This document shows, piece by piece, positions 14,713 through 59,334 of a stretch of DNA of 64,000 nucleotides. Positions within the stretch are counted from its first letter, which is position 1; every line of letters begins with the position of its first letter. Location: NCBI RefSeq assembly GCF_056746865.1, contig NZ_CM163382.1. One strand, written 5' to 3'. Under the pieces are notes generated by a model, which worked only from the letters and a program-made list of their open reading frames with translations, did no database searches and was not told the DNA's origin. The position numbers were made by a program, and so were the translations under genes.

Positions 14713-15543
14713 TTATTTACCAATATAATTCCATTCACCATTTTTTAATTCAAACAGTTCTGGAAGAGATGACGGTTGCAGAGTCATACGTTTGAGTGGT
14801 GCATTTTCATCACCCGGGATAACTTTATATCCCATTTTTGCATGGATCTCCGCGGTACCGGGATAGGCTTCTATACCAATTATTGGGTCATTACCCAACT
14901 CAATATTAGCATTAAGTAATGCGGCAAGGGCGAATCCGGAAGAATTTGCTACCCCTGTTACCGTCATTATCTGATCAATATAGATATCAATCCTTGGCTG
15001 CTCATTGGTCCATCTTTTTGCCTGAGAAGCTGGAAGGGTTGAAATATATCCTATCGTGGTTCCGGCATAACCAGGAACATTGCAACCAGGGCCTAATGTT
15101 ATTTCATGAACTGTATAGTCCTCAACAGGATCGAAAGGGCTCTTCATAAATAAATTTAGCCGTAAACCTTCTGCTAACTCTGTGGTAGCATGCGCCTTTT
15201 TACATATGCCACCATATATTTCGTCTAAAGCTGAGGTGATTTTCAAGTTCCGATAGAGCATACGTCCTGTTGTTGTAATACCATCGGATTCTCTGCATGC
15301 TCCTGTCACATAATTAAATGGCCAAGGCTCTTTACTAATATCAAGTTTTCTAATTTCGACAACGCTTTTTCCATCGTAATTATGGTTATTGCCACGAGTA
15401 AGAGGCGGAAGATAGATGTTTTCCGAATCCATGCGTGCATATTTTAATTTACGTGTAAACTCACTGTCGACTATTGGGTGATGAAGGAAGTGAGCATCTG
15501 TAATAATTTGACTCTGAAGGGCATTGCTTAATGGCATAGACAT
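14713..15543 (-). CDS. yjiC: Uncharacterised protein YjiC
   Basis: 276-aa ORF with no recognisable motif; position and length match the yjiC I recall next to uxuR in E. coli. Confidence 0.7.
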   Translation of the reverse strand: MSMPLSNALQSQIITDAHFLHHPIVDSEFTRKLKYARMDSENIYLPPLTRGNNHNYDGKSVVEIRKLDISKEPWPFNYVTGACRESDGITTTGRMLYRNLKITSALDEIYGGICKKAHATTELAEGLRLNLFMKSPFDPVEDYTVHEITLGPGCNVPGYAGTTIGYISTLPASQAKRWTNEQPRIDIYIDQIMTVTGVANSSGFALAALLNANIELGNDPIIGIEAYPGTAEIHAKMGYKVIPGDENAPLKRMTLQPSSLPELFELKNGEWNYIGK

Positions 15544-28220: not shown

Positions 28221-29141
28221 ATGACAAACTTCACGACCAGCACGCCGCATGATGCATTATTTAAAACCTTTCTCACGCACCCTGACACTGCGCGGGATTT
28301 TATGGAGATTCATTTACCTAAAGATTTACGTGAACTGTGCGATCTCGATAGCTTAAAACTGGAATCCGCCAGCTTTGTCGATGAAAAATTGCGGGCGCTA
28401 CACTCCGATATTTTATGGTCGGTAAAGACCCGCGAAGGCGATGGCTATATCTATGTGGTGATTGAACATCAGAGCCGCGAGGACATTCATATGGCCTTTC
28501 GCCTGATGCGCTATTCCATGGCGGTGATGCAGCGCCATATAGAGCATGATAAACGCCAGCCGCTACCGTTGGTCATCCCGATGCTATTTTATCACGGTAG
28601 CCGTAGTCCTTACCCCTGGTCCCTGTGCTGGCTGGACGAATTTGCCGACCCGACTACCGCACGGAAGCTTTATAACGCCGCGTTCCCGCTGGTGGATGTT
28701 ACTGTCGTGCCAGACGACGAGATTGTGCAGCATCGCAGAGTCGCCCTGTTGGAGTTGATCCAAAAGCATATTCGCCAGCGCGATCTGATGGGGCTTATCG
28801 ATCAACTGGTAGTATTACTGGTTACAGAGTGTGCTAATGACAGCCAGATAACTGCGCTGTTAAATTACATTTTACTGACTGGCGATGAAGCGCGTTTTAA
28901 TGAGTTTATCAGTGAACTTACCCGTCGAATGCCACAACACAGGGAGCGAATAATGACGATTGCAGAGCGAATTCATAATGATGGATATATAAAAGGGGAG
29001 CAGCGCATTCTTCGATTGTTGTTGCAGAATGGGGCGGATCCTGAATGGATACAAAAGATTACCGGACTTTCGGCAGAGCAAATGCAGGCATTAAGGCAGC
29101 CCTTGCCTGAGCGTGAGCGCTATTCATGGCTCAAGAGTTAA
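28221..29141 (+). CDS. rpnD: Rpn-family recombination-promoting nuclease (PD-(D/E)XK, transposase_31-like), full length
   Basis: 306 aa, N-terminus [38 protein letters not shown] typical of the Rpn/YhgA family; uninterrupted reading frame. Confidence 0.8.
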
Positions 29142-30797: not shown

Positions 30798-30973
30798 GCT
30801 GTATTCCTTATGTGGACCATACAGAGAGAAAAACCGGTACAGATGAGGCTAAAAAACCGGATGCAGATGCTGTTTTAACCTGTCTGTATGTTAAATAAAA
30901 GTAATATTTGAATCTGTATTGTGAACTGCCAGAAGGTGGATGATGAAGCCTCTGAAAGATGAGGAGGTAGCAG

Positions 30974-31138
30974 ATGGAATTTCACGAAAACAGAGCTAAA
31001 GCGCCGTTTATCGGCTTGGTGCAACTCTGGCAGGCGGTGAGGCGTTGGCGGCGGCAAATGCAGACCCGACGCGTGTTACAGCAGATGAGTGATGAGCGGT
31101 TGAAGGATATCGGGTTACGCAGGGAGGATGTGGAGTGA
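30974..31138 (+). CDS. yjiS: Small DUF1127-family protein YjiS (54 aa)
   Basis: ATG at 30974 preceded by GAGGAGG; translation MEFHENRAKAPFIGLVQLWQAVRRWRRQMQTRRVLQQMSDERLKDIGLRREDVE, an Arg-rich DUF1127-like peptide. It is below the ORF-track length cutoff. Confidence 0.7.
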   Translation: MEFHENRAKAPFIGLVQLWQAVRRWRRQMQTRRVLQQMSDERLKDIGLRREDVE

Positions 31139-31588
31139 GGGGGGATATAGATTTATATATAATAAAACGTTTTTATGTTTTTAAATTAAGTTATAAAAAT
31201 TTTCCCGAGACAATTCATCAATAGGTATGGAGTGTACAGGAATATCTTCTTCACTAACCTCTTTAAACTCATGTCGATAACGGTCAAAAAACGCACAGTG
31301 ATTACTTGTGTTTTTTGACTGACTTTACAACTCTCATTATTCGCTATTGTGCAGTTTCTCTAATTGTTTTATACCCTGGAAAGTTAAATGTCAGCTACTG
31401 AATACTTTTTGATTGTTTGAGATTTATTTTCATTTGAAATTATAAAATCAGGTGATAAATGAGTTGTGATTAATAGATGGTTGATATCATTTTTATCTAA
31501 AATTGATTTATAGTATCGACCTGAAAAAATAGTTGTTGCCGCCTGAGTAACTATACAATATTCTGAAAGGTTTTCTTTCAAATTAGAA

Positions 31589-34500
31589 ATGTTGTGGGGT
31601 TTTGTTTTTGTATCTTTTATCTCTAAGGAGCTTGCTTTGGGTCAATCAGAATACATTTCATGGGTAAAATGTACTTCCTGGCTAAGTAACTTTGTGAATC
31701 TTAGAGGGTTGAGACAACCGGATGGCCGTCCTCTTTATGAATATCATGCAACCAATGATGAATATACCCAATTAACGCAGCTACTCCGTGCAGTCGGTCA
31801 ATCACAATCTAATATATGTAATAGGGACTTTGCTGCCTGTTTTGTTCTTTTTTGCTCTGAGTGGTACCGCAGGGATTATGAACGGCAATGCGGATGGACG
31901 TGGGACCCTATATATAAAAAAATAGGGATTTCATTCACCGCCACAGAGCTTGGTACTATCGTACCGAAAGGGATGGAAGATTACTGGCTGCGCCCAATTC
32001 GATTTTATGAATCTGAACGACGCAATTTTCTCGGAACATTATTCAGTGAAGGTGGTTTACCTTTCCGGCTACTCAAAGAATCAGACAGTCGCTTTCTGGC
32101 TGTTTTCTCCAGGATCCTTGGACAATATGAGCAAGCAAAGCAGTCAGGTTTTTCTGCCCTTTCGCTGGCAAGAGCTGTCATAGAAAAATCAGCGCTGCCA
32201 ACTGTTTTTAGCGAAGATACCTCTGTAGAACTTATCAGTCATATGGCTGATAACCTCAATTCCTTAGTACTTACTCACAACCTAATAAATCACAAAGAAC
32301 CAGTACAACAGCTTGAGAAGGTTCACCCTACCTGGCGAAGCGAGTTTCCAATACCGTTAGATGATGAAACAGGAACGCATTTTTTGAATGGACTGCTATG
32401 CGCAGCCTCTGTAGAGGCTAAGCCTCGACTACAAAAAAATAAGAGTACGCGTTGCCAATTCTATTGGTCAGAAAAGCATCCAGATGAGCTTAGGGTGATA
32501 GTATCTCTTCCGGACGAAGTTTCCTTTCCTGTAACAAGCGAGCCGTCAACTACGCGCTTTGAACTTGCCATTTGTGAAGATGGTGAGGAAGTCTCTGGCC
32601 TTGGGCCAGCCTATGCTTCTCTGGAAAACAGACAGGCAACAGTTCGATTACGTAAAAGCGAAGTGAGATTTGGCAGGCAAAATCCATCGGCAGGTTTGTC
32701 GTTAGTGGCTCGTGCTGGAGGGATGATTGTTGGGAGCATTAAACTTGATGACAGTGAAATTGCCATTGGTGAGGTGCCGTTAACCTTCATCGTTGATGCA
32801 GATCAATGGCTGTTACAGGGACAGGCTTCTTGCAGTGTGCGAAGCAGCGATGTTCTGATTGTGCTCCCTCGGGATAATAGCAATGTTGCTGGTTTTGATG
32901 GCCAATCGAGGGCAGTAAACGTATTAGGACTAAAAGCACTACCTGTGAAGGGATGTCAGGACGTTACAGTTACAGCAAATGAAACTTATCGGATTCGCAC
33001 CGGAAGAGAACAAATCAGCATCGGAAGGTTTGCTCTAAATGGAAAGCGTGCAAGCTGGGTTTGTCATCCAGATGAAACATTTATTGGTGTACCAAAAGTC
33101 ATTTCTACACTACCGGATATTCAAAGCATTGATGTAACGCGTTACCTGAGCGGAATTTCAATTGAGCAATGTCATATACAAGAGATGCTGGGGGCTCAAT
33201 ATCTTTCTATCCGTAATAGTAAGAATGAAACGCTCTTGCGTCGCAAAATCGGTATTTTGCCTGCTGATTTCAGTATTGAGATAAAAGGTGGAATACACGC
33301 AAATGAAGGCACTATCGTAATCACCACACAGCATCCTTGTGTAGCAAAACTTAAAGATAAAACATTGGAGGCTACACGTAAGCGTACTGAGGGGCGAACA
33401 GAGATACAACTCAAAGCGGAAGGGGTACCTCCGGCATTTATTACATTACAAGTTCTGCCTAATTTGGCGGCTGACCCCATCGATATTGAGTTACCTTTTC
33501 CCGCTAAAGGCTGTCTCGCTCTTGATGTAAACGGACGTCCTCTGGATAAAAACATTACGCTGCATGATCTGCTGGGTTCCAGAGCGTTTCTGTTCTCCAG
33601 AAATGGCGAGCCGACAAGATATACATTGCAGTTGCATTTGCGCTCCGTTAGTGGATTACAGGCATGGCACGAATGGTGTTATACGGCGTTGAGCGATCGT
33701 CCTGTTGAATTGAATCTCTATAGTCTGCGCGAACATATTGAGAACCTGATTTCACTTGAGGCAGGTATTGACCAGGTTGTTGAGATGCGTATTACGGGGG
33801 CGGGTGTGGTCATGGCCTGGCAAATTCGTCGCTATAAATACAGTCTGCGCTATGATTATGAAAAAGAACTATTACTCAGCCAGTCAGTGAACCATCGTGC
33901 TGGACAGATTCCTTCCCCCGTTATCATGCTGTTAAGTGAACCCGAGAGGAAATCCATCCCCTTAGCATCAAGAATGAGCGAGGGAGTGCCTGTCGGTGAA
34001 TATGAGTTGAGCTCAATCGTTAACAAAAATGGACCGTGGTTGGTTGTCCCTAAACCGGGTGAAGAGATGGCTTTTCGTCCCTGCTTCATTCGTGGCGAAT
34101 CTTCGTTACCGGTAGAAGAAAGCAACATCCGCTCATTGCAGAAAGCGACCCAGCTTTTTAATCCACAGGCAGAAGTTAATACCATCACACTGGTTCTCGG
34201 ACAGATGGCTAACGATCCTGCCCATTCCGGCTGGCAATTTATGCGTAGCCTGTACGATCAATTTGGTTATTTACCACTGGCAACCTTTGAAGTATGGCGT
34301 GCACTGGTGCAGCATCCGCAGGCATTGGCAATGTCGCTCTTCAAATTTGAAATGTCAGCAGAGTACCTGAGTCGTATTGAGAATGAGTTCCCTATTCTAT
34401 GGGAGTTTTTCCCCATCTTTGAGATCAAAGCGGCATCTGAGCGTTTCAAATTGTTCCTGAGCCAAAAAGGTGCACCGGAGGAAACCCAGAAATTACTGGT

Positions 34501-34927
34501 TACTAATATGTTTCAACGGCTGGGGCTCGTGTTCCCGACATATGCCGATGAAATTGAGAAATGGTTAAGTAACGGACATCTCCCCCCGTCTATTCCTGAG
34601 TCTTTTGTCCACGTGTGGTATCAGGAGCTTTTACGTGAGCATAGTGAAGCTCAATGGCCAGAGTACGGCAGCAAGCGGCTGCATAGCTGGATGGCATCAC
34701 AAAAAAATCCAGTGATTGGTATTAATCCTGACGCAAATCACCGCTATTCCGTGGCCTTGTTACCCGTCTTCGCTGCAGCTGTGGCAAGCGGAAATGCTTC
34801 TTTTGAATCTGTATTTGACCGTAAACCCGGTGCCGTATTTTTCCTGAGGCAAGTCAGGGATTTCGATTCCCGCTGGTTTAAGGCCATCTTCCAGTGCAGC
34901 CTGTTGCGTTATGTTGCTAAAAAATAA
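31589..34927 (+). CDS. Large protein of unknown function (up to 1112 aa), first gene of a two-gene candidate defence operon; DruH-like by architecture
   Basis: Long uninterrupted ORF ending 12 bp before the helicase gene. No P-loop, nuclease or methylase motif recognised by eye. Coding sequence is visibly AT-richer than its neighbours. An alternative TTG start at 31637 has an AAGGAG RBS 6 nt upstream. From memory this corresponds to a full-length version of the yjiT fragment of K-12. Confidence 0.75.
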   Translation: MLWGFVFVSFISKELALGQSEYISWVKCTSWLSNFVNLRGLRQPDGRPLYEYHATNDEYTQLTQLLRAVGQSQSNICNRDFAACFVLFCSEWYRRDYERQCGWTWDPIYKKIGISFTATELGTIVPKGMEDYWLRPIRFYESERRNFLGTLFSEGGLPFRLLKESDSRFLAVFSRILGQYEQAKQSGFSALSLARAVIEKSALPTVFSEDTSVELISHMADNLNSLVLTHNLINHKEPVQQLEKVHPTWRSEFPIPLDDETGTHFLNGLLCAASVEAKPRLQKNKSTRCQFYWSEKHPDELRVIVSLPDEVSFPVTSEPSTTRFELAICEDGEEVSGLGPAYASLENRQATVRLRKSEVRFGRQNPSAGLSLVARAGGMIVGSIKLDDSEIAIGEVPLTFIVDADQWLLQGQASCSVRSSDVLIVLPRDNSNVAGFDGQSRAVNVLGLKALPVKGCQDVTVTANETYRIRTGREQISIGRFALNGKRASWVCHPDETFIGVPKVISTLPDIQSIDVTRYLSGISIEQCHIQEMLGAQYLSIRNSKNETLLRRKIGILPADFSIEIKGGIHANEGTIVITTQHPCVAKLKDKTLEATRKRTEGRTEIQLKAEGVPPAFITLQVLPNLAADPIDIELPFPAKGCLALDVNGRPLDKNITLHDLLGSRAFLFSRNGEPTRYTLQLHLRSVSGLQAWHEWCYTALSDRPVELNLYSLREHIENLISLEAGIDQVVEMRITGAGVVMAWQIRRYKYSLRYDYEKELLLSQSVNHRAGQIPSPVIMLLSEPERKSIPLASRMSEGVPVGEYELSSIVNKNGPWLVVPKPGEEMAFRPCFIRGESSLPVEESNIRSLQKATQLFNPQAEVNTITLVLGQMANDPAHSGWQFMRSLYDQFGYLPLATFEVWRALVQHPQALAMSLFKFEMSAEYLSRIENEFPILWEFFPIFEIKAASERFKLFLSQKGAPEETQKLLVTNMFQRLGLVFPTYADEIEKWLSNGHLPPSIPESFVHVWYQELLREHSEAQWPEYGSKRLHSWMASQKNPVIGINPDANHRYSVALLPVFAAAVASGNASFESVFDRKPGAVFFLRQVRDFDSRWFKAIFQCSLLRYVAKK

Positions 34928-34939
34928 AAAGGAATAAGG

Positions 34940-37900
34940 ATGACTACACGCTATTTTTCGTCACTTATTGAACAATCGTTGTCTCGTTCAACTGAAGCAA
35001 CGCTCAGTATCATGGGCGTTACCAACCCGCAGCTGCGTGAACATCTCGCGCAACAAATGGGGGCTGATTGTGGGAAACCGGGCTCATTCCTTGCTTCTCC
35101 GGTATTCCAGCAAATGTTTGGCTGGAAGGAGTCAAACCACACGATGCGCAGCCTGACGGAAGGCAACGCATTGTTGAGCAAAGCAGTGGTTGATTCACTG
35201 GATGATCAGAATAATGGCCGGTACCGGTTTGGTGCTGACTGGAGGCCTTTTACGCACCAGTTAGCCAGTTGGAAAGCTTTGCTGGAAAAGAAACATTCAG
35301 TGGTGGTAACCAGTGGTACGGGTTCAGGTAAAACGGAATGTTTTATGGTACCGGTGCTGGAAGATCTTTACCGGGAACTGCATGAAAATGGCAACAATCC
35401 GTTGGTCGGTGTCCGAGCCCTTTTTCTCTATCCATTGAACGCCCTGATTAATTCACAGCGCGAGCGTCTGGATGCCTGGACGCGTGGTTTTGGTACAGGG
35501 ATCCGCTACTGCCTTTACAACGGCAACACCGAAAACCTACACGCTTCGGTAAAAAGCGAACAGGCAAAAAGGCCGAATGAGGTGCTCTCGCGCGAAAAAA
35601 TGCGTGAAGAACCTGCGCCGATTCTGGTGACCAACGGCACGATGCTGGAATATATGATGGTTCGCCAGGTCGACGCCCCGATTATCCAGCAATCTAAAGC
35701 ACAAAAATCACTACGCTGGATTGTACTGGATGAAGCGCATACCTATGTAGGGTCGCAGGCCGCTGAACTGGCGCTCCAGCTGCGTCGTGTGATGACCGCG
35801 TTTGGCGTGACACCAGATGACGTGCGCTTTGTCGCGACCTCTGCGACCATTGCCGGCAGCGACGCTGAAAAGCAGCTGAAAAAATTTCTCTCTGAATTAT
35901 CCGGTATCCCGCAGGAGCGCATCGATGTTCTGGACGGAAGTCGGGTGATTCCTGAACTGGAACCATCCAAAAACGTTTCTGTTCCGTTAGACGAGATAGA
36001 GCAAATACCTGATCTGGATCTAAGAGATAAAAATGATAATAAAATTAAAGGGATAAGTCCTGAGCGCTTTTATGCGCTTACGCATTCCCCCGAAGCGCGT
36101 TACATACGTGAGATGTTGGTCAAACAGCCCAATCCGATGAAGCTGGATGAGATAACAGAGCGGTTACACGTGCTGACAAAACAGCATTACAGCCAGCAGG
36201 AAGTACTGCGTTGGATCGATGTCTGTTCAGGGACTCAACCTAATGCAAAGGATCCCGCATTTCTTAAAGTCAGGGCGCATATCTTCCAGCGTAATACCCA
36301 GGGAATATGGGCTTGTGTTGATAAAGATTGCAGATTAAAGCACGGTACACCGCTCGACAAAGGCTGGCCCTTTGGCTATGTGTATGTGAACCAGCGACAA
36401 AATTGTGACTGTGGAAGCCCTGTATACGAAGTTGCATTCTGTAATGATTGTAATGAGCCTCATCTTCTGGCACGGGACAAAAAGGGCAAACTAGTCCAGT
36501 GGGAAAATAAAGGTGGCGATGAATTCTCTTTGCAGGATGAAGTACCTGTTGAACATGACGCTACAGAAGAAAAAGTCGAAAAAGAGAACAGTTTTCAGCC
36601 TCCGTTGATTATTGCCGCAGGAGAGACCAGCGAGGCAGGTTATACCCTACAACGCCTCGACCGTCAGACGCGCCGTATTGGCGTTATTAACAATGACAGC
36701 ATTCCGCTGATTATTAATGATATTGAACAGGTTTGTAGTGCCAGTGGCTGTGGCTACAGAGGCATGAGTGGGAAACAGCCCTTCCGGCGTGCACTATTAG
36801 GTGGGCCATTTTACGTTACTAATATCGTGCCCACCGTTCTAGAGTATTGTCAGGACTTTACCAGTGATGAAGGCAAAGAGGGCGTCGGACCAGATTCGTT
36901 GCCAGGACGAGGTCGTCGACTCATCACCTTTACAGACAGTCGACAAGGGACAGCCCGAATGGCGGTGCGTATGCAGCAAGAAGCAGAACGCAGTCGCTTA
37001 CGCGGAAGCGTAGTCGAAATTCTCAGCTGGCATCAAAGGACGCAAACGTCTACAGCGCCGAATGCCAATGCCGATCTGGAAAAATTAGCGGCCAGGGCGA
37101 AGCAAGCCCGTGAGCAGGCAGAAGAATATCGAAGCTGGGGAATGCCAGACCAGGCGAAATTGTCACAAGCACAGGCTGAACAGCTTGAACAGGCTTATCA
37201 GGCTGCAACCGGTGGGAAAGCTGCGACTATCCTGGTATCCCGAACCTGGACGGAGATGGTTAACGAGCTTAAAGAGAGAGCCGATATCCGCGGGCCGGTT
37301 CTGCAATATAACCATTATCTTAAGCCTGAAGTGTTTAATGAAAACGGCGGCCCCCTTAAGCTTTCTGAAATGTTGTTGTTCCGGGAATTCATGCGTCGCC
37401 CTAAACGGACTAACAGCCTGGAAACACAGGGGCTGGTTCAGGTTGGTTACCAGGGGCTGGAGAAAATACATAAGAGCCCCTTGCACTGGCAGGAAAAAGG
37501 ATTAACGCTGGATGACTGGCGCGATTTTCTCAAGGTTACGTTGGATCATTACGTTCGCGAGAGCAACTTCACACAGCTGGATGATGAGCTGAAAAACTGG
37601 ATTGGTAGCCGTTTTTCATCAAAATTCGTCCGTAACCCGGAATCAAAAGATCCTGAAGATAATCAGAACAGACGCTGGCCTCAAATTCGTAATGGCAACG
37701 TATCCCATCGTTTAGCGAAGTTGCTGATGCTGGGGGCTGGATTCAAAACCGTCAATGCGGCAACTATTGATATTATCAATACATGGCTGAAAGAAGCATG
37801 GGCCCAACTTACCGGACCGCTTGCAGTACTGAAACCCGATGGCAACCGTTTTTATTTACCGAAAGAGCATATGACTTTTTCTTTAATCACGGATGCCTGG

Positions 37901-40900
37901 ATTTGCCCGGTAACCAATAAAATCCTGGATACGGCTTTTAAAGGCTTAACCCCTTATCTGCCTACCCATATTTCGTTCGAGCATCTTACCCTGGCGCAAT
38001 ATGACACTTTTGTCGCGCAGAAAGTCACAATGCCGGAAATCTGGAAGCTGGATCGTTCACAGGAAGACTACGCAGAGGGTCTGGCAAAAGCACGCGACTG
38101 GGTCAGCCATGATCCGCTGATCGCACAATTGCGGTCGGAAAACGTCTGGACAGACATTAACGATCGTGTCGTGGAAGGCGGCTTCTACTATCGTACTGCC
38201 GAGCACTCTGCCCAGCAGTCGTCAGAACGTCTGCAAAGCTATGAAAAGATGTTCAAGAATGGGCAACTAAATGTTCTCAACTGTTCCACCACCATGGAAA
38301 TGGGGGTTGATATCGGGGGTATTACTGCGGTGGTAATGAACAACGTACCGCCACATCCGGCCAACTATTTACAGCGCGCCGGGCGAGCCGGGCGTAGTAA
38401 AGAATCACGCGCGATCTCTTACACCCTATGTAAAGGTAACCCACACGACCAGCAGGTTTTTGCCAACCCGCTCTGGCCATTTGAAACCATGATCCCGGCA
38501 CCCATGGTCGCGATGAACTCCGCCCGACTGGTGCAACGTCACGTCAATGCATTATTACTGTCCGACTTTTTATGTAACGTTATTGGCGAAACCGATAAAG
38601 AAAAAACCAGCCTCGATAGCCTCTGGTTTTTCGGTGAAGATGACGGGCAGTCAAAATGCGAACGCTTTAAAATCTGGCTGGAACGTCCGGTTCTTGATAT
38701 CGACACGGCGCTGGAACGGCTGGTGAAAGGTACGGCGTTGCATGGTGCAAGAGCCGAATATCTGCGGGATAAAACAATCAACGCGATCACCTTCCTGCAA
38801 CAGCGGTGGCTCTCCGTTTATCGCGATCTCGTGACACAGGAGCGTGAGTCGCAGCCGCAAACGCCTTATCGTAAGCGCATAGAGCTGGAGAAGAAACGGC
38901 ACTGTGGCGAGTATCTGCTGCGCGATCTGGCTGCCAGAACCTTCCTGCCGGGATACGGTTTCCCGACAGATGTAGTGACGTTTGATAACTTCACGATGGA
39001 AGATTATATCCGCGAAAAATCGCAGAAAAGTCGTGATAAAAAGGACCGTGAAGATAACGTTTCCCGTTATAAAGGATTACCTTCCCGTAACCTCGGTGTT
39101 GCCATTCGTGAATATGCACCGGGAGCAGAGATCATCCTTGATGGCCGTGTCTTCCGCTCTGCCGGTGTCTCACTGCACTGGCACAACATTAATGCTGATA
39201 CCAATGAAGCCCAGCGTCTGGATTGCGCCTGGCGCTGTCACAAATGCGGGACCATTGGCTATGAAGAGGGGATGAGCAGTTCCGGGATGCTCTTTTGCTC
39301 CAATAGCGCCTGCGGCGAAAAAATAATCATGGATAATCGCCGTCAGGTGCTGCAGCCTGCCGGGTTTGTCACCGATGCACACGCTCCGGTAACGAACAAT
39401 ATTGAAACCATGAAATTCGTCCCGGTTGTCCCCGCGTGGGTCTTTGTTAAAGCAGAGCCCGTACCGTTGCCTAACCCGCTAATGGGTTATATGGCTTCTG
39501 GGGCTGATGGGCATGTTTTCCAGCAAAGTTTGGGGGAAGGTGGACACGGTTATGCATTGTGTCTGAGCTGTGGCCGTGCTGAGTCGATGCTGAATGAAAA
39601 TGATGCGCCGAAAAGTATGGAAGCTCACTATCCACCGCGTCCGGGTAAAGCGGATCGCGACAGCCAGAATCATCGTCTGATTTGCCCCGGTTCGACGGCA
39701 CTCATGAAGAATGTCACCCTGGGCGCACTGGCGCGTACCGATGTCTTTGAAATGGTTCTGCGCAAACCGCAAAACGGCGAGTATCTGCCAGATAACACAG
39801 AGGAGGGGCGGATTGTTGCCATGACTCTGGCGGTTGCTCTGCGTCAGGCGCTGGCGGGCGTTCTGGGTATCTCCGCCGCAGAACTCGGCTATTCTGTACG
39901 TCCGGTCAGACTGGAGGATGGGCAATCGGTATTAGCCGTACAGCTTTATGATGTGATCAGCGGTGGTGCAGGTTTTGCCTCCAGCGCACCGGTACACATT
40001 GAAGCTATATTGCAGGGAATGGTGAAACAGTTAGGCTGCCGCCATTGTGAGACTGCATGTAGTGAATGCCTGCTTGATTCCCAGACTCGCCACGATCACG
40101 ATTTGCTGGATCGCAAAGCGGCGCTGGCCTGGCTTGGCGATGACTTCACGTATTACATCGGTTTACCGGATGAAGAGACATTCTCGCTGCCGGATGCCCG
40201 CTACTGCCCTGGCGCCATTGGCGATACGATTCGCCGGGCGATTAACGAAGGCGCTGAAAAGCTCACCCTGTGGATGACCGGCGCGCCCAATGAGTGGGAT
40301 TTATACGCACGTCAGTTCCGCGCGGCGGTTCAGAACTATCGGCTAAAAGACAACGTCGAGGTCGATCTTGTTATTCCTACGGGAGTGGATGACCCGGACC
40401 TGTTGCATGAACTATCGCAATTTACTGCGCTGGGTGTGCGGCTGTGCCATGTTGAACAGGATCTGCAATTACCGATCGTTGCCCAGGTCACCTTTACCGA
40501 TCGCGTGATGACGCTGGCCTCTCGCAGCCAGCAGGCAACGATTCCGGGGCCGGAGTGGCACCTGAATGACGAACTGGTGGTGCGTAGTCTCGGTTATAAA
40601 ACGGTAGAACTGAACGAGTTTATTCTGCCGGCTAAAGCCACCAACGCTGTCGAGCGGGTCAAAGACATTCAGATCCACAAACAGTTGAATGGACCACTGT
40701 CGCAGTTTGGGCAACGCTTCTGGGACGTGCTGTTTAACGACCATGAAGAAGCGCAGTCACTGATGAATAACACGCGAATTACCGGCGTTCACTATACCGA
40801 TCGCTATCTGCAAAACCCGGTTGCGCTGGCGTTGTTGGGATCAATTCTGAGACCGCTAAAAACAAAGCTGACCGATGGCGCTGAAGTGACGCTGGATACG

Positions 40901-41284
40901 CTATTTAAAGATAAAGATCGCCCCGGTAACCGGCCTTTCCATGACTGGATGAGCATAGCGGATTTTCAGGATTTCGCTGATCAGTGGTTTGCTGCTGCGC
41001 TGGGCAGGCCGGTAGAACTGACGGTGTTCGACTCGCCGCGCGATATCCCTCACCATCGTAAACTGACGGTGACTTTTGAGGATGGTCAGGTATTGAAGAT
41101 CCGCTTCGATCAGGGGATGGGCTACTGGCGCATCAACTTTTCATCGCAATGGCATTACTTTGATTTCCGCGATGACGTTTCTTTCCAGTTAGTCAAAATG
41201 GCTCAGGCCTGCAAGGAAGGGAATGTCGCCAACAGCGAAGAGAGTTGGGCAACGGATGTGCTGGTGGAGGTGATCGCCTCCTGA
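34940..41284 (+). CDS. Giant (2114 aa) superfamily-2 DEAH-box helicase with Zn-ribbon / DUF1998-like Cys clusters; DruE-like by architecture
   Basis: ATG at 34940 with AAGGA RBS. Walker A GTGSGKTE (35315-35338), motif II IVLDEAH (35720-35740), motif [10 protein letters not shown] (38372-38395), Cys clusters CAWRCHKCG (39224-39247) and [11 protein letters not shown] (40037-40069). Operonic with the upstream 1112-aa gene. Confidence 0.85.
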
Positions 41285-41291
41285 TGATGAG

Positions 41292-41326
41292 CCGCTCCCG
41301 ATGTGGTGTCGGGAGCGGTATTTTCT
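41292..41326 (+). terminator. Rho-independent terminator of the two-gene operon
   Basis: CCGCTCCCGA-TGTGGTG-TCGGGAGCGG hairpin directly followed by TATTTTCT, 8 bp after the helicase stop codon; placed between the convergent helicase gene and mcrC. Confidence 0.7.
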
Positions 41327-41340
41327 ATAAAACTTACCGC

Positions 41341-42387
41341 TTATTTGAGATATTCATCGAAAATGTCGAGTAATTCTTGATGTATACACGGCCATTCCTG
41401 ACCTAAATTGACGGTACACAAGCCAATATCGAAGCCATTAATTTTATAACGATGTTTCACTGCGGTATCTACGTGGGGATATATTAATAATCCCCCTATG
41501 TTTTCGCCATTTTCAGGCTTTAACGACCATAAGTAATTCATCAGTTGATAAAGATTTTGCGAATGAAATTTTTCTGTTCCCATTCGTCGTGAAAAAATGC
41601 TCTTATAGTATTTGGCGTCAACGATAAGTATTTTTTCTGATGAGCGAATGGTGATGTCAGTTTCCATTCGAGGTAACAAATTAAGTGACTGATCCGATAT
41701 ACTCGATGCATCCCATTTTAAATAAGAGCGGGTTGTGTTTGCAGACGTTAATTCACGACGGCAAAATTCATAAAGAAACTTTTGATAAAGTAATGACATC
41801 TCTTTTTCGTTTCTTTCAAAATCATAGAAACGGTAGTGTCCTTTGTTTTGACCTGGAATAGAATTATTGACGATGAATTTGCAGACACTGATAACGAATT
41901 TATAATAACGCGTATTTTTTCCGCCATTCAGATAGCTGAAATGCTGCGGAGTTAAATGAAGAGTGCTAATGCCCGGTAATTTTCTATAAAGTGAACGAGC
42001 TTCATCTCTGATAGTTGAATTTAACTTTTCATGCTTAATTAATATGGCTAATGTGCTTTTTATAATTCGGTTAGCCAGCGTGTCTTCATTAAGCATATCA
42101 AAAGTACTGACGGTTTTCCCATGATTAAGATGGAAGCCGCGTATTGTTTTAGCAAACTCTATTCGCCCTTTGATGCCAGGAATGATCTCGGTATTAGGAT
42201 TGTAATCAAGCTCAAGCCCTCGGCGTGAAAGCTGTAAAACCCCTTTATTTAATACATACCCCAGGATATCAAGAAGATTGTTACCGGGTATGGCTTCAAG
42301 GTTTGCCTGCTTAATTTCCTGTAAATAACCCCATGCATAGGTAAGCATGTAATAGATATTACGGACAGGTATCACGGGCTGTTCCAC
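41341..42387 (-). CDS. mcrC: 5-methylcytosine-specific restriction enzyme McrBC, endonuclease subunit McrC
   Basis: 348 aa from a GTG start (VEQPVIPVRNIYYMLTYAWGYLQ...) sharing 1 nt with the mcrB stop codon; the track ORF extends 10 codons upstream to an ATG at 42417. Confidence 0.85.
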   Translation of the reverse strand: MEQPVIPVRNIYYMLTYAWGYLQEIKQANLEAIPGNNLLDILGYVLNKGVLQLSRRGLELDYNPNTEIIPGIKGRIEFAKTIRGFHLNHGKTVSTFDMLNEDTLANRIIKSTLAILIKHEKLNSTIRDEARSLYRKLPGISTLHLTPQHFSYLNGGKNTRYYKFVISVCKFIVNNSIPGQNKGHYRFYDFERNEKEMSLLYQKFLYEFCRRELTSANTTRSYLKWDASSISDQSLNLLPRMETDITIRSSEKILIVDAKYYKSIFSRRMGTEKFHSQNLYQLMNYLWSLKPENGENIGGLLIYPHVDTAVKHRYKINGFDIGLCTVNLGQEWPCIHQELLDIFDEYLK

Positions 42388-43927: not shown

Positions 43928-44269
43928 TTACGCGACTTTCTGTTTACCGGCAATCACTCCAATAAACGCCTGCACCTGCTTTTGTTTACGCGCCGACAGT
44001 TTGCACACCTGGCGTAGCGACTGCATCAGTTCGCTCTCCTCGGCGGCGGGTGGTTGGGCGGTGAGGACAATACAGCCTTCCATCACTTTGACATCTACCG
44101 CCGTGCCAGTGGCAAAACCGGCGGCTTCCAGCCACTGACCTTTCAGGGTGATGGCGGGAATACGGCTGTAATCCGGGTAGCGACTCGCATAACCGACGGT
44201 GACATGACGGTTATTTGCCGGGGAGACTTCTGCTTCGAACGGTTGTGCAATAGAATGCGTGTCAGTCAT
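43928..44269 (-). CDS. symE: SOS-induced toxin-like protein SymE (type I toxin-antitoxin, AbrB-fold)
   Basis: 113 aa from [34 protein letters not shown]; located between mcrB and hsdS; the track ORF is extended upstream. Confidence 0.8.
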
Positions 44270-44338
44270 AACTGCTATTCTCCAGGAATAGTGATTGTGA
44301 TTAGCGATGCGGGTGTGTTGGCGCACATCCGCACCGCG
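44262..44338 (+). ncRNA. symR: Candidate antisense sRNA SymR (RyjC) overlapping the symE 5' end; coordinates approximate
   Basis: Established knowledge that a roughly 77-nt cis-antisense RNA overlaps the symE ribosome-binding site and start codon. The exact ends cannot be fixed from sequence; a 9-bp stem hairpin at 44309-44332 lies within the region. Confidence 0.25.
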
Positions 44339-44346
44339 CTAAATAC

Positions 44347-55708: not shown

Positions 55709-56100
55709 AGTAAAACCTGGCATTTTACTCGTCGTCTTTTGGCTTACAGGTGCGGCAGCTGCGTTCGTTCACCTCTGACACTTACTGTTGTAAGCTCCCG
55801 GGGATTCACTCACTTGCTGCCTTCCTGCAAACCAAAATCCATAGAGTAATTTGTTAATCATAGGCCGAAGCCGTTCTAGGTTTGCGTTGCGTTTGAGGAG
55901 GTAAATTGACCGCTATCCTGCAGTGATGTTGCCAGAGATACGCGCGCGTAAAGTAAGGTAAATAACTGAGTGGTTATTTTAGGGATGTAAGCGGTCAGGA
56001 ATGGCGGTGAGCGGTTGGGCAAGAATTATTCATCGGGTGGATATGTGATTGAGATCACAATAAAAATGCCCCTTCGACGAATGCGTGAAGGGGCTGGAGC

Positions 56101-56613
56101 TTAAATCGCAGCTTCCATTTCCAGCATCACCGGATGGAAACGGCGTTTAAAGTAGATAAGTCCGTGACCTTCTGCACTGAGGATGATGTTTTTAATCTCC
56201 ACCAGATACACCAGATGTGTGCCAATTGCCTGCACATCGCGGATCTCACCTTCAAGACTGGCCAGCGAACCTTTTAGCACCGGCTGCGCCAGCGGACCTT
56301 TTTGCCAGCATGAGAGGCTAAAACGCTCTTCCATCGCCATGCCTGTCATGCCCGCGAAGTGGCGTGCCATCAGTTCCTGCTCATGGTTGAGGACGTTGAC
56401 GCACAACTTGCCGTTGCCCTGAAAAACCGGGTTCATCGCACTGTTGGCGTTAATGCACACCATCAGCGACGGTGGTGTATCCGTGACCGAGCAGACAGCC
56501 GTTGCCGTAATCCCGCATTGTCCGGTGTCGCCCTCGGTGGTGATAATATTTACCGCTGCCGACAGGCTGGCCATCGCGTCACGAAAGCGCAGGCGTTGTT
56601 CATCTAATTGCAT
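56101..56613 (-). CDS. hpaC: 4-hydroxyphenylacetate 3-monooxygenase, flavin:NADH reductase component HpaC
   Basis: 170-aa flavin-reductase-family protein directly downstream of hpaB. Confidence 0.88.
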   Translation of the reverse strand: MQLDEQRLRFRDAMASLSAAVNIITTEGDTGQCGITATAVCSVTDTPPSLMVCINANSAMNPVFQGNGKLCVNVLNHEQELMARHFAGMTGMAMEERFSLSCWQKGPLAQPVLKGSLASLEGEIRDVQAIGTHLVYLVEIKNIILSAEGHGLIYFKRRFHPVMLEMEAAI

Positions 56614-56630
56614 CTTAACCTCCTGCTGCG

Positions 56631-58193
56631 TTATTTCAGCAGCTTATCCAGCATGTTGATATCGTCGTTGTTGTGCAGGTGCGGCACAGTCCAGCCGTTC
56701 TGGTCGTATTCCGACAGGCAGCGATCAACCATCGCCATCATCTTGTCCATATTGCCGGAGCTTTGTGCCTGGCGCAGACACTGCAGGCGAATCTCATCCT
56801 GGCTACCGGAGTAGTTGATTTCATACAGTTCGTGGCGACCACCAAACTCGCTGCCAATGGCGTCCCACATCAGTTTGAGGATCTTGATGCGCTGGACGTG
56901 ATCCATACCATTCGAACCGCGCACATACTTCGCCAGATACTGGTCGATCTGCGGATTGTTCAGGTCACGGGCACTGGAAGGGAGGTAGATCAGGCCACTG
57001 GTAACGTTGCGTTCGATAATGTTTTTGATCTTCGCGTAGGCCATTGGTGCCAGTACGCGATAGGTTTGCAGTGCGGCATGATCCGGTAAATAAGCCCCGT
57101 TGACCCACGGCGTCGCTTCAGAACACATCGAGTCACTCAATGCCCAGAAGGTGTTGCGCCACGCCACCACTTCACCGAGATCGGCCTGCACACCACGGAA
57201 CTCCAGGGTGCCGGTACATTCGAGTGATTTTTTCAGCAGTGCCGTAATGAAGTCGAGTTTCACTGCCAGGCGCACACAGGCTTGCAGCGGATACATACGG
57301 GCAAAACCGCCTTCCATCGTCCAGCGACGGCAGCGATCAAAATCGCGGTAGATCAGCACGTTTTCCCATGGGATCAGCACGTTATCCATCACCAGAATCG
57401 CATCATTCTCATCGAAGCGGCTGGAGAGCGGGTAGTCATACGGTGAGCCGGTAGCACCCGCGACCATCTCATAAGAGGCGCGGGAGATTAATTTCACGCC
57501 ATCAGCATCCATTGGCGCAACGAACATCAGCGCGAAGTCCGGGTTTTCGCCCATTACTTGTGCCGAGCCGAAGCCAACCATGTTGTAGTGAGTCAGCGCC
57601 GAGTTGGTGGCAACCACTTTCGCACCGCTAACGATAATCCCGGCGTCAGTCTCTTTTTCCAGCTTGATGTAAACGTCTTTCACTTTATCGGTCGGCAAAT
57701 GACGATCGATCGGTGGGTTAACAATCGCGTGGTTAAAGTAGAGGCCAGTTTCCTGAATACGGGTATACCAGTTACGGGCGTTCTGCTCGAACTGACCGTA
57801 AAAGCCCGGATTCGCGCCCAGTGCGCAACCGAAAGCAGCTTTGTAGTCTGGGGTACGGCCCATCCAGCCATAGCTCAGGCGTGACCACTCAGCGATGGCG
57901 TCGCGTTGCTGGCGCAGGTCGTCGGCACTTTTCGCCACGCGGAAGAATTTATGGGTATAGCCGCCGCTGCCGGTGTCGGTGTTCCAACACAGAGAGTCCT
58001 GCATCTCCGGTTTGTGCAGCGCGTCGTACAGTTGGGCAACAGACGCTGCCGCATTACGAAATGCCGGATGAGTAGTGACGTCTTTCACTCGCTCGCCATA
58101 GATATAGATCTCGCGACCATCCTGCAGGCTTTTCAGATACTCTTCCCCGGTGAACGGACGTTGGGTACTGGCGCGGAAATCTTCTGGTTTCAT
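56631..58193 (-). CDS. hpaB: 4-hydroxyphenylacetate 3-monooxygenase, oxygenase component HpaB
   Basis: 520-aa two-component FADH2-dependent monooxygenase-family protein (MKPEDFRASTQRPFTGEEYLKSLQDGREIYIYGERV...). Confidence 0.9.
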   Translation of the reverse strand: MKPEDFRASTQRPFTGEEYLKSLQDGREIYIYGERVKDVTTHPAFRNAAASVAQLYDALHKPEMQDSLCWNTDTGSGGYTHKFFRVAKSADDLRQQRDAIAEWSRLSYGWMGRTPDYKAAFGCALGANPGFYGQFEQNARNWYTRIQETGLYFNHAIVNPPIDRHLPTDKVKDVYIKLEKETDAGIIVSGAKVVATNSALTHYNMVGFGSAQVMGENPDFALMFVAPMDADGVKLISRASYEMVAGATGSPYDYPLSSRFDENDAILVMDNVLIPWENVLIYRDFDRCRRWTMEGGFARMYPLQACVRLAVKLDFITALLKKSLECTGTLEFRGVQADLGEVVAWRNTFWALSDSMCSEATPWVNGAYLPDHAALQTYRVLAPMAYAKIKNIIERNVTSGLIYLPSSARDLNNPQIDQYLAKYVRGSNGMDHVQRIKILKLMWDAIGSEFGGRHELYEINYSGSQDEIRLQCLRQAQSSGNMDKMMAMVDRCLSEYDQNGWTVPHLHNNDDINMLDKLLK

Positions 58194-58443
58194 GTCGACC
58201 TCTACAGTATTAATCGGAATACGATTGTTAATTTTGTGTGTTGTTTTTGTTATTCAATTGAAGCTTGCAGGGGCGATTACGGGAAGAGACTTTTGGGACA
58301 ATGGCTGGTACTTTTCAGGTCGGGTACGGTTTTGTGATCGAGGTCGCTTTTAGCGATTTTTGACGTTACTAAATCCCCTTGCTCCAGGCGGAGAAAGGGG
58401 AATAGCAGGTGGTGCCTGGTTTCCCGTTAAGGCTAAGGGATTT

Positions 58444-59334
58444 TCACGTCACAGGTACTTTTTTGGCACGATAAGCACTGGGCGAGCAACCGACTAAGCG
58501 ATAAAAAAAGCGCGCAAAATAAGCCGGATCCTTAAAACCGAGTTGCCAGGCAATATTGTTCACGGCGTTATCAGAAAACAGCAGCAGCCGCTTGGCTTCT
58601 CGCAGCTGCCTGTCGAAAATCAACCGTTTTGGCGGACGGTTGGCAAAGCGACGGCAGATGTCCGTGAGTCGTGATTCGGTGATATGCAGTTCGTTAGCGT
58701 AATCCGGTACTGTCCAGTGCTGATGAAAATGGCTTTCAATCAGCATATGAAAACGCTGGAACAGTTTTAATTCTCCGCGCATCCCGCTGGCGGCATGGTC
58801 GTCGAGTTTTGCGTTACGCAGCAGTAGGGTGAACACTGCCTGTGCCAGGAGCGTCAGGGTGTGTTCCCGTCCAGGCAGTTGTTCCACCGATTCCCGCTCT
58901 ATCAGTTGCCAATAGTGTTCCAGCGCCGCCAGTTCGTCGGGTTTATCTGCCAGTGACAGGCAAATCCCCGGCAGGCCGAAGGTTTCCCGAGTGCCCGGAT
59001 ACAGAACTTCCAGCAGGGGCCAGATCAGATCTTCCCGTACCGTCAACACATGACCGTCGGCGTCAGACTCCGTAATAAACGCATGAGGTACTGACGGCGG
59101 CGTCAGGACAAACAGGGGCGCTTCCACCGAGTAGCGATGATCGTCAAGCTGTAGCTCAATCTGTCCGCTATTGAGGAAATGCATCTGAAAGTACTGTTCG
59201 TGGCGATGTGGCAGCATATGGCGGCCAAAAAATGCCGCCATGCGGGCGAACGACTGATAATGCACATCGTCCGTACCCAGGCTTTCATCGTACTCTTTGC
59301 TGATATCAATATTGGCAATCTGACGGTCACGCAT
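58444..59334 (-). CDS. hpaA: AraC/XylS-family activator of hpaBC, HpaA
   Basis: 296 aa with C-terminal AraC-type HTH; sits upstream of hpaBC. Confidence 0.85.
   Translation of the reverse strand: MRDRQIANIDISKEYDESLGTDDVHYQSFARMAAFFGRHMLPHRHEQYFQMHFLNSGQIELQLDDHRYSVEAPLFVLTPPSVPHAFITESDADGHVLTVREDLIWPLLEVLYPGTRETFGLPGICLSLADKPDELAALEHYWQLIERESVEQLPGREHTLTLLAQAVFTLLLRNAKLDDHAASGMRGELKLFQRFHMLIESHFHQHWTVPDYANELHITESRLTDICRRFANRPPKRLIFDRQLREAKRLLLFSDNAVNNIAWQLGFKDPAYFARFFYRLVGCSPSAYRAKKVPVT

Follow-up and report, generated by a model that had tools for sequence, protein, structure and literature searches.

Positions 31,589 to 41,284 of a 64,000-nucleotide stretch of contig NZ_CM163382.1 (RefSeq assembly GCF_056746865.1), referred to here as the window, hold two very large co-directional open reading frames (ORFs) on the + strand, the first encoding 1112 residues when read from its first ATG (31589..34927) and the second 2114 residues (34940..41284). 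An original prediction made from the letters of this DNA had described the pair and the 12-bp gap between them, and its coordinates match the ORF list exactly. Reading frames this long (about 1100 and 2114 codons) in DNA of about 50% G+C content cannot be a product of chance. The locus is almost certainly a Druantia type III system, composed of druH, which is yjiT, and druE, which is the full-length ancestor of yjiV. An intact chromosomal druH–druE operon of the III-A architecture, acting by a mechanism derived from homology, is very probably the best explanation of the locus. Druantia was defined as a system type in 2018.

Both proteins give full-length, top-ranking matches to PADLOC models of the type III system, DruH to DruH3 (PDLC00049, 1826.9 bits, residues 19–1112 of the 1112-residue form) and DruE to DruE3 (PDLC00037, 2700.9 bits, residues 1–2110 of 2114 and model positions 1–2053 of 2055), in agreement with the original prediction of a Druantia type III-like DruH and DruE pair. 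The hidden Markov model search that it had proposed also matched the Pfam families DEAD, Helicase_C and MZB (formerly DUF1998). DruH additionally matches the NCBIfam model NF038336 (YjiT_fam, "STY4851/ECs_5259 family") with 1257.8 bits against a cutoff of 150. Gene content and order are those of a two-gene type III system, with a YprA-like superfamily 2 (SF2) helicase of about 2000 residues preceded on the same strand by a DruH of about 1100 residues, and with no DruA–D, DruF/G or methyltransferase genes adjacent. DISARM (DrmA/DrmB), Dpd (DpdJ), ARMADA and Druantia I, II and IV share the helicase and DUF1998 core with DruE. Assignment to DISARM, Dpd or Druantia I, II or IV was rejected: the matches are confined to this generic core (DruE1 540 bits over residues 1107–1732, DpdJ 98 bits, DrmA 35 bits; DruE1/2/4 together 360–540 bits over residues ~1107–1732), and the signature partners (DruA–D/F/G, DrmB/C/MI, Dpd genes, methyltransferases) do not lie beside the operon. 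Readings as Cas3 or as a BREX helicase were likewise rejected, the match being limited to the generic helicase core.

The system type, the link of the gene family to YjiT and the immigration control region (ICR), and the type III mechanisms are already known in the literature and in annotation resources. Little in the assignment itself is new, as RefSeq names the locus YjiT and DEAD/DEAH helicase and the PADLOC scores are near-maximal; a 2026 preprint places DruH in the YjiT family of the ICR.

The start of DruH most likely lies at TTG 31637, because the RefSeq annotations of three genomes, the lengths of homologues from many genera (1094–1100 residues) and an AAGGAG 7 nt upstream all point to it. 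The protein would therefore have 1096 residues, and not the 1112 originally given; use of the ATG at 31589 would lengthen it by 16 residues. The tight 12-bp spacing between the two genes suggests that translation of druH and druE may be coupled.

Table 1. Features of the druH–druE locus in window coordinates; invariance refers to the 22 DruE3 proteins described in the text.
Feature	Position	Strand	Details
AT-rich leader	31139..31636	+	498 bp, 29.4% G+C, between yjiS and druH
druH (yjiT)	31637..34927	+	1096 residues from TTG 31637 (most likely start); Shine-Dalgarno sequence AAGGAG at 31625-31630
K-12 deletion 1	33146..36167		3022 bp; junction microhomology GTTAC; frameshifting (blastn and junctions)
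Spacer	34928..34939	+	12 bp; AGGA 6 nt 5' of the druE ATG (sequence)
druE	34940..41284	+	2114 residues; YprA/MrfA-like SF2 helicase with C-terminal PLD-like domains
RecA1 / DEAD domain	35255..35869	+	residues 106-310; Pfam DEAD 1e-22
Inter-RecA-lobe insertion	35960..38179	+	~740 residues (~341-1080); modules assigned by alignment
RecA2 core / Helicase_C	38192..38398	+	residues ~1085-1153; Pfam Helicase_C 9.8e-12
K-12 deletion 2	38313..40496		2184 bp; junction TA; in frame
OB/Zn region	39227..39694	+	Cys 1433/1436/1453/1458 and 1541/1544/H1563/1582; invariant
MZB (MrfA Zn-binding, formerly DUF1998)	39830..40072	+	residues ~1631-1711; Pfam 4.2e-9
Tandem PLD-like domains	40112..41281	+	residues 1725-2114; second with invariant Y1952-x-D1954-R1955-Y1956...H2038-x-R2040...D2057-x-G2059
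Intrinsic terminator hairpin	41291..41319	+	terminator scan; RNAfold -24.0 kcal/mol

Domain structure of DruH and DruE

A sequence search of the PDB returned solved Escherichia coli structures for both proteins, DruE (9tu7, 2108 residues) and DruH (9tud, 1119 residues), which are the OI-172 proteins of ATCC 8739/EDL933 and are flanked there by Zorya II and ARMADA II. A Pfam-A search of the window DruH found no domain, in keeping with the original description of a protein without a recognisable catalytic motif. The AlphaFold2 (AF2) model of DruH (pLDDT 77.8) places helices at residues 1–260, strands at 270–830 and helices at 834–1096, a predicted layout of an N-terminal helical domain, β-rich immunoglobulin (Ig)-like repeats and a C-terminal helical domain. 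Foldseek with this model returned solely generic tandem Ig-like proteins at low TM-scores, and published structural searches on DruH likewise gave tandem Ig-like proteins. By hhalign, a profile of 25 DruH homologues aligns with the solved E. coli DruH sequence over 1003 columns at 99.9% probability and 21% identity. The model, Foldseek and hhalign together agree with the fold that marks type III DruH, namely an N-helical domain, about six Ig/Fn3-like domains and a C-helical domain. Invariant charged residues are grouped in the N-terminal domain (R23, D29, R31, E42, E75, R78, R79, R119, R129 and E138), to which published work assigns a putative exonuclease site, and the window clade has invariant basic residues of its own in the C-terminal domain (R1036, R1071 and R1074). 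The residues R22/K28/E64/E220 of the Pseudomonas aeruginosa DruH (PaDruH) fitted no Pseudomonas member of the DruH alignment.

Conservation in DruE was read from an alignment of 22 DruE3 proteins that includes the solved E. coli DruE. Invariant positions comprise the Walker A motif (G126–T132, with K131), the DEAH box (264–267), the SAT motif (300–303) and motif VI (Q1145–R1152), together with C1700, C1703, C1707 and C1710 of the MZB domain. Pfam and this alignment bear out the SF2 helicase motifs and the DUF1998/MrfA-type Cys clusters that had been noticed originally. The insertion between the RecA lobes carries Cys pairs that are likewise invariant (459/464, 489/491, 501/504 and 599/604), conserved Arg residues and a helical, charged stretch at about residues 690–800, which matches OI-172 DruE in position with little identity there. 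On this alignment the insertion appears to correspond to the WH, double-Zn, duplex-binding and dimerisation (stalk) modules named in published structures (10.64898/2026.05.13.724758 and 10.64898/2026.05.13.724313); the published stalk/dimerisation domain is inserted in RecA2 and also docks DruH's C-terminal domain. The OB/Zn clusters agree with the pair of Zn motifs that the published OBZ domain contains, and the five Zn-binding Cys motifs in all (two in the insertion, two in OB-Zn and one in MZB) reproduce the pattern published for DruE.

Mutations that abolish defence in the ATCC 8739/EDL933 DruE have been reported at G118/G120/K121, D251/E252, R1135/R1138 and C1681/1683/1687/1690. The aligned equivalents in the window DruE are G128/G130/K131, D264/E265, R1149/R1152 and C1700/1703/1707/1710, all of them conserved. 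The residue 'K124' mutated in E. coli DruE in a 2022 preprint fits neither K131 of the window nor K121 of OI-172. Following MZB are two C-terminal PLD-like domains with a conserved pocket in the distal one, as in the III-A architecture of Bell et al. 2025 and the 2026 structures; the original description of DruE had left this module out. From its motif, the distal PLD pocket is a putative nuclease site.

The window operon shares the druH–druE order and the DruE model PDLC00037 with the systems of ATCC 8739/EDL933/ECOR19 (OI-172/SPIDER, 'cluster 11'). The two DruE proteins have the same order of domains (RecA1, the insertion with its putative Zn/duplex-binding/dimerisation modules, RecA2, OB-Zn, MZB and two PLD), with all published essential helicase and Zn residues kept in the window, and the AF2 model and profile alignment indicate an overall similar architecture for DruH. 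The differences are nevertheless extensive. DruE is 33–35% identical from end to end. For DruH the identity is 27% over the first 246 residues, after which the two sequences hardly align (~21% in the global profile alignment), and the window DruH falls under PDLC00049 where OI-172 DruH falls under PDLC00041. Where the OI-172 genes overlap at stop and start, the window has a 12-bp spacer; its operon is placed in the ICR, with yjiS and mcrC on either side and no Zorya II or ARMADA II neighbours, and at the DNA level OI-172 druHE aligns with the window over just one 129-nt motif VI stretch of about 79% identity. Given the identities of 33% for DruE and at most 27% for DruH and the different neighbours, the window system does not belong to 'cluster 11'. 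Wu et al. split Druantia III into 15 clades and carried out experiments on "cluster 11" (OI-172/SPIDER) alone, and the window clade is, as judged by sequence, distinct from all E. coli Druantia III systems so far studied by experiment. It would thus make a useful second E. coli reference for asking which published mechanism generalises, in particular with regard to the need for PLD and the role of DruH.

Comparison with the P. aeruginosa BL21 Druantia III system (Loeff, Chanez, Jinek 2026) was limited to motif pattern and spacing. Both are two-gene DruH–DruE systems, the D-R-Y...H-x-R PLD signature of DruE is shared with near-identical spacing, and both DruH proteins have N-helical, Ig-like and C-helical domains. 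A P. aeruginosa DruE from our search (P0159, 59% identical to the window DruE) was considered as the protein studied there and rejected; its DEAH Glu is residue 264 and not 266, and its DRY motif lies at 1951 and not 1917, so the studied P. aeruginosa DruE belongs to another lineage.

Decay in laboratory strains and distribution

K-12-lineage genomes align with the window in three blocks (blastn), with 3 substitutions in the retained 5.4 kb. K-12 yjiT/yjiV is the same allele between the same flanks, yjiS and mcrC, from which 3022 and 2184 bp have been lost; the alignment suggested originally thus maps the decay of the K-12 remnants, whose presence had been stated correctly, and the undecayed ancestral form proposed for the window is in essence the K-12 allele without its deletions, with function assigned by homology. 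With the first deletion DruH is lost from residue ~504 to its end, as are ~409 codons at the 5' end of druE (its first 1.2 kb); the second takes out motif VI of RecA2, the OB/Zn region, MZB and the beginning of the PLD module. The repeats at the junctions lie at 33141–33145 and 36163–36167 (GTTAC) and at 38311–38312 and 40495–40496 (TA) of the window. Because both junctions show microhomology, the deletions point to illegitimate recombination or replication slippage, and not to insertion sequence activity, as their likely origin. RefSeq flags the K-12 remnants, a partial yjiT and a partial helicase, as pseudogenes. The deletion map accounts for these yjiT/yjiV pseudogenes and bears out that the strains commonly used as phage hosts are without a working copy.

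In E. coli B, yjiR, yjiS and druH are missing together with the 5' half of druE, and the insertion sequence IS1 stands at the breakpoint; in a BL21 derivative IS1 abuts a helicase fragment that keeps just the 3' 3.4 kb. A 100%-identical allele in strain WP2-S18-ESBL-08 is interrupted by an IS1 insertion. At least 80% of the locus is present in 224 of 5426 complete E. coli genomes. DNA of the ICR-type druE at 95% identity or above is found in about 620 of them, of which just ~224–234 hold most of the locus. A further 33 genomes have druE-like DNA at 80–90% identity to the window, which may mark a third lineage within E. coli or DNA acquired recently from a different enterobacterial genus.

Relatives of DruH are 97% identical in E. 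coli (a cluster of 1866 sequences), 60–77% in Pantoea, Cronobacter, Serratia, Klebsiella and Kosakonia, about 63% in Salmonella Typhi, and 41–48% in Pseudomonas, Azotobacter, Aeromonas and methanotrophs. Those of DruE are 80–89% identical in Pantoea, Leclercia and Pluralibacter and 59% in P. aeruginosa. DruH diverges faster than DruE, consistent with a published report. Carriage on plasmids was considered as a sign of mobility and rejected, as it is rare: only 6 plasmid records have a DruH relative, and the sole close match among them, with a length of 4.9 Mb, is evidently a chromosome. One cluster (P0118, 229 member sequences) consists of a 921-residue chimeric ORF with YjiT domains and MZB; over 40% of its length this ORF is 97% identical to the window DruH. 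It corresponds to decayed copies of window 31637–41284, evidently stems from fusion within a druH–druE locus that has undergone deletion, and may be annotated as a real protein.

Proposed mode of action and alternative explanations

Type III phenotypes and mechanisms have been described in several studies (10.64898/2026.05.13.724758, PMC13192584, 10.64898/2026.05.13.724313, 10.64898/2026.05.12.722862, PMC13316683 and 10.1101/2022.06.16.496414), and the earlier remark that no mechanism is known has been overtaken by the 2026 papers and preprints among them, which give cryo-EM structures as well as mechanisms. DruE has been published as a dimeric 3'-5' helicase(-nuclease) that loads on the exposed single-stranded DNA (ssDNA) of 3'-tailed or forked DNA, with activity that needs the ATPase, MZB and dimerisation elements. 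DruH has been reported as a 3'-5' ssDNA exonuclease that joins DruE in a fork-dependent 1:1 complex, as a sensor of phage proteins whose nuclease activity depends on the dimer, and as an ssDNA binder under competitive inhibition by ATP in a system with no nuclease module (10.64898/2026.05.12.722862). Phage is cleared without host death in the E. coli and Pseudomonas systems, and abortive infection has been reported in Mycobacterium smegmatis.

For the window itself, family membership, intactness, the essential residues, the PLD fold and motif, the architecture of DruH, and the decay in K-12 and B are established. By analogy with the characterised homologues, the DruE dimer would load on exposed ssDNA at 3'-tailed or forked phage DNA and act as a 3'-5' helicase, in a manner dependent on its ATPase, its Zn-binding MZB domain and the dimerisation/stalk insertion. 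DruH would bind or trim ssDNA ends and/or sense phage proteins, thereby licensing DruE. The phage DNA would then be degraded by the PLD-like site of DruE and/or the nuclease of DruH, or be kept unwound for other nucleases, and phage would be cleared directly with survival of the host. A helicase triggered by DNA structure, with nuclease support and acting directly on phage DNA, is the probable mode of action of the window clade; we infer its expression, its anti-phage activity and each biochemical step from the homologous systems.

A rather unlikely alternative keeps the Druantia III identity and dispenses with a nuclease of the system's own. DruE would only unwind phage DNA from 3' tails, and DruH, freed of inhibition by ATP, would coat the ssDNA and immobilise the genome, which other nucleases would destroy, plausibly the adjoining EcoKI-type HsdR, McrBC or Mrr, or RecBCD. 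This is the model of Hu et al. (10.64898/2026.05.12.722862). It agrees with the survival of EDL933 defence without the PLD domains, with the best structural match of the PLD module, which is the non-catalytic MITD1 domain, with the HxR motif found in place of the canonical HxK, and with the presence of three restriction systems directly beside the operon. Against it stands the DRY...HxR pocket, whose residues are the same in all 22 of a diverse set of DruE3 proteins and so speak for an active site under selection; such strict conservation in the window clade favours a site that is functional. PLD domains are moreover essential in the P. aeruginosa system, where the equivalent mutations abolish defence and DNA degradation, and the ECOR19 DruE cuts long DNA in vitro.

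The main explanation, an intact Druantia III operon acting directly on phage, is not free of difficulties, and several observations weigh against it. The published mechanisms conflict on the need for PLD, on the role of DruH and on abortive infection. All E. coli experimental work that we found concerns the cluster 11 lineage, the other tested systems being those of P. aeruginosa and M. smegmatis. The ssDNA/ATP pocket of the solved E. coli DruH (Y670, N672, Y733, R1031, H1062, R1064 and K1067) aligns here with T663, Q665, R718, V1026, D1061, K1063 and A1066, and is thus not conserved at the aligned positions, though the alignment, at ~20% identity and with a single-sequence template, is unreliable. 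A scan of the leader for the sigma-70 consensus gave no match and did not locate a promoter. Finally, the locus has been inactivated independently in K-12 by deletions, in B by loss beside IS1, and by IS1 in the 100%-identical allele of WP2-S18-ESBL-08.

The last two observations, with the 29% G+C of the leader and the contrast between ~620 genomes with ICR-type druE DNA and the ~224–234 with most of the locus, would also fit an operon that is intact yet silent, for example through silencing of the leader by H-NS, and that forms a cryptic pair heading for decay of the K-12/B type. We regard this as quite unlikely. About 3200 codons are uninterrupted with all catalytic residues kept, the Shine-Dalgarno sequences are good and a terminator is present, many of the decayed copies come from laboratory derivatives of K-12 and B, of which the complete genomes include a disproportionate number, and the tested E. 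coli Druantia III systems run from native AT-rich promoters. Extremely improbable is a housekeeping DNA-repair helicase pair of the MrfA/YprA kind in place of immunity. The DruE core is homologous to Bacillus subtilis MrfA/YprA (PDB 6znp, E 5e-17), with which it shares the SF2 DEAH core, the MZB/DUF1998 domain named after MrfA and the OB-containing accessory architecture of a 3'-5' helicase. MrfA, however, has about 750 residues, an exonuclease partner, MrfB, and a role in repair, whereas DruE is three times its size, pairs with DruH in place of an MrfB-like protein, and adds the Druantia-specific ~740-residue insertion, extra Zn clusters and the PLD module. The patchy distribution (the 224 E. 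coli genomes with at least 80% coverage), the position in a defence island and the published anti-phage phenotypes of homologous type III systems also speak against it, and the repair reading was rejected on architecture, distribution and context.

The position next to classical restriction systems raises the question of synergy. It is unlikely, but conceivable, that the ICR-resident clade, whose DruH shares only about 21–27% identity with any characterised DruH and which is without Zorya II or ARMADA II partners, has a different trigger or phage range and cooperates with the EcoKI-type Hsd, McrBC and Mrr systems. If so, restriction cuts resected by RecBCD would supply 3'-tailed DNA for the loading of DruE and the ICR would act as one restriction-plus-helicase pathway, and the repeated loss in K-12 and B would have altered the phage sensitivity of standard laboratory hosts.

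Leader, terminator and neighbouring genes

The operon is preceded by the long AT-rich leader and closed by the intrinsic terminator of Table 1, both of which had been pointed out originally. The druHE promoter presumably lies within this leader. Comparison of the leader with Rfam gave no family match, and a scan for ORFs and repeats gave none that were convincing, merely weak repeats and short AT-rich ORFs. A 65-residue, TTG-initiated antisense ORF within it (31384–31581, – strand), which is without family support, is probably spurious. In one genome of close relationship, an unnamed 'hypothetical protein' is annotated at some point under the match to 30800–41400. The terminator lies in the 56-bp gap that separates druE from the convergent mcrC, and its stem of 12–13 bp, including 8 G-C pairs, is followed by AUUUUCU, a short U-run.

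The G+C fraction is 0.294 in the leader, 0.455 in druH (0.40 at third codon positions) and 0.512 in druE (0.531 in its 3' half), compared with 0.501 for the whole window and 0.37–0.40 for mcrBC. The AT-rich coding sequence of the original prediction, and its reading of composition as a sign of horizontal acquisition, therefore apply to the leader and druH and not to druE at 51% G+C.

The immediate neighbours of the operon are yjiS (DUF1127) upstream and mcrC downstream. Window positions 14940–58900 differ from E. coli FDAARGOS_497 by 1 mismatch in 43,961 bases (99.998% identity), and the RefSeq gene order there is rpn, yjiR, yjiS, yjiT, DEAD/DEAH helicase, mcrC, mcrB, symE, hsdS, hsdM, hsdR and mrr. 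The annotation of this near-identical segment shows that the original placement of the operon, in a restriction island between rpn-yjiR-yjiS and mcrCB-symE-hsdSMR-mrr, was correct.

Three further observations concern the surroundings. The SymR antitoxin RNA, at 44264–44340 on the + strand (95.3 bits, E 2e-17), is the sole Rfam match in the 64-kb window; it is antisense to the 5' end of symE (~43928–44269, – strand) and lies between mcrB and hsdS. The gene rpnD (formerly yjiP/yjiQ; 28221–29141, + strand) is an intact 306-residue ORF of the Rpn family here, whereas it is flagged with an internal stop in the K-12 lineage and is truncated in E. coli B, with IS1 directly downstream; of the two genes that flank the ICR on its left side, both are thus intact in the window and broken in laboratory strains. 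To the right of the ICR lie 4-hydroxyphenylacetate (hpa) genes (a reductase subunit, hpaB and hpaA) at ~56100–58900 on the – strand, a cluster reported as present in E. coli B and absent from K-12 (PMC5379014). As this cluster adjoins ICR alleles that are 99.9–100% K-12-like, the surroundings of the ICR may be a mosaic of K-12-like and non-K-12 segments.

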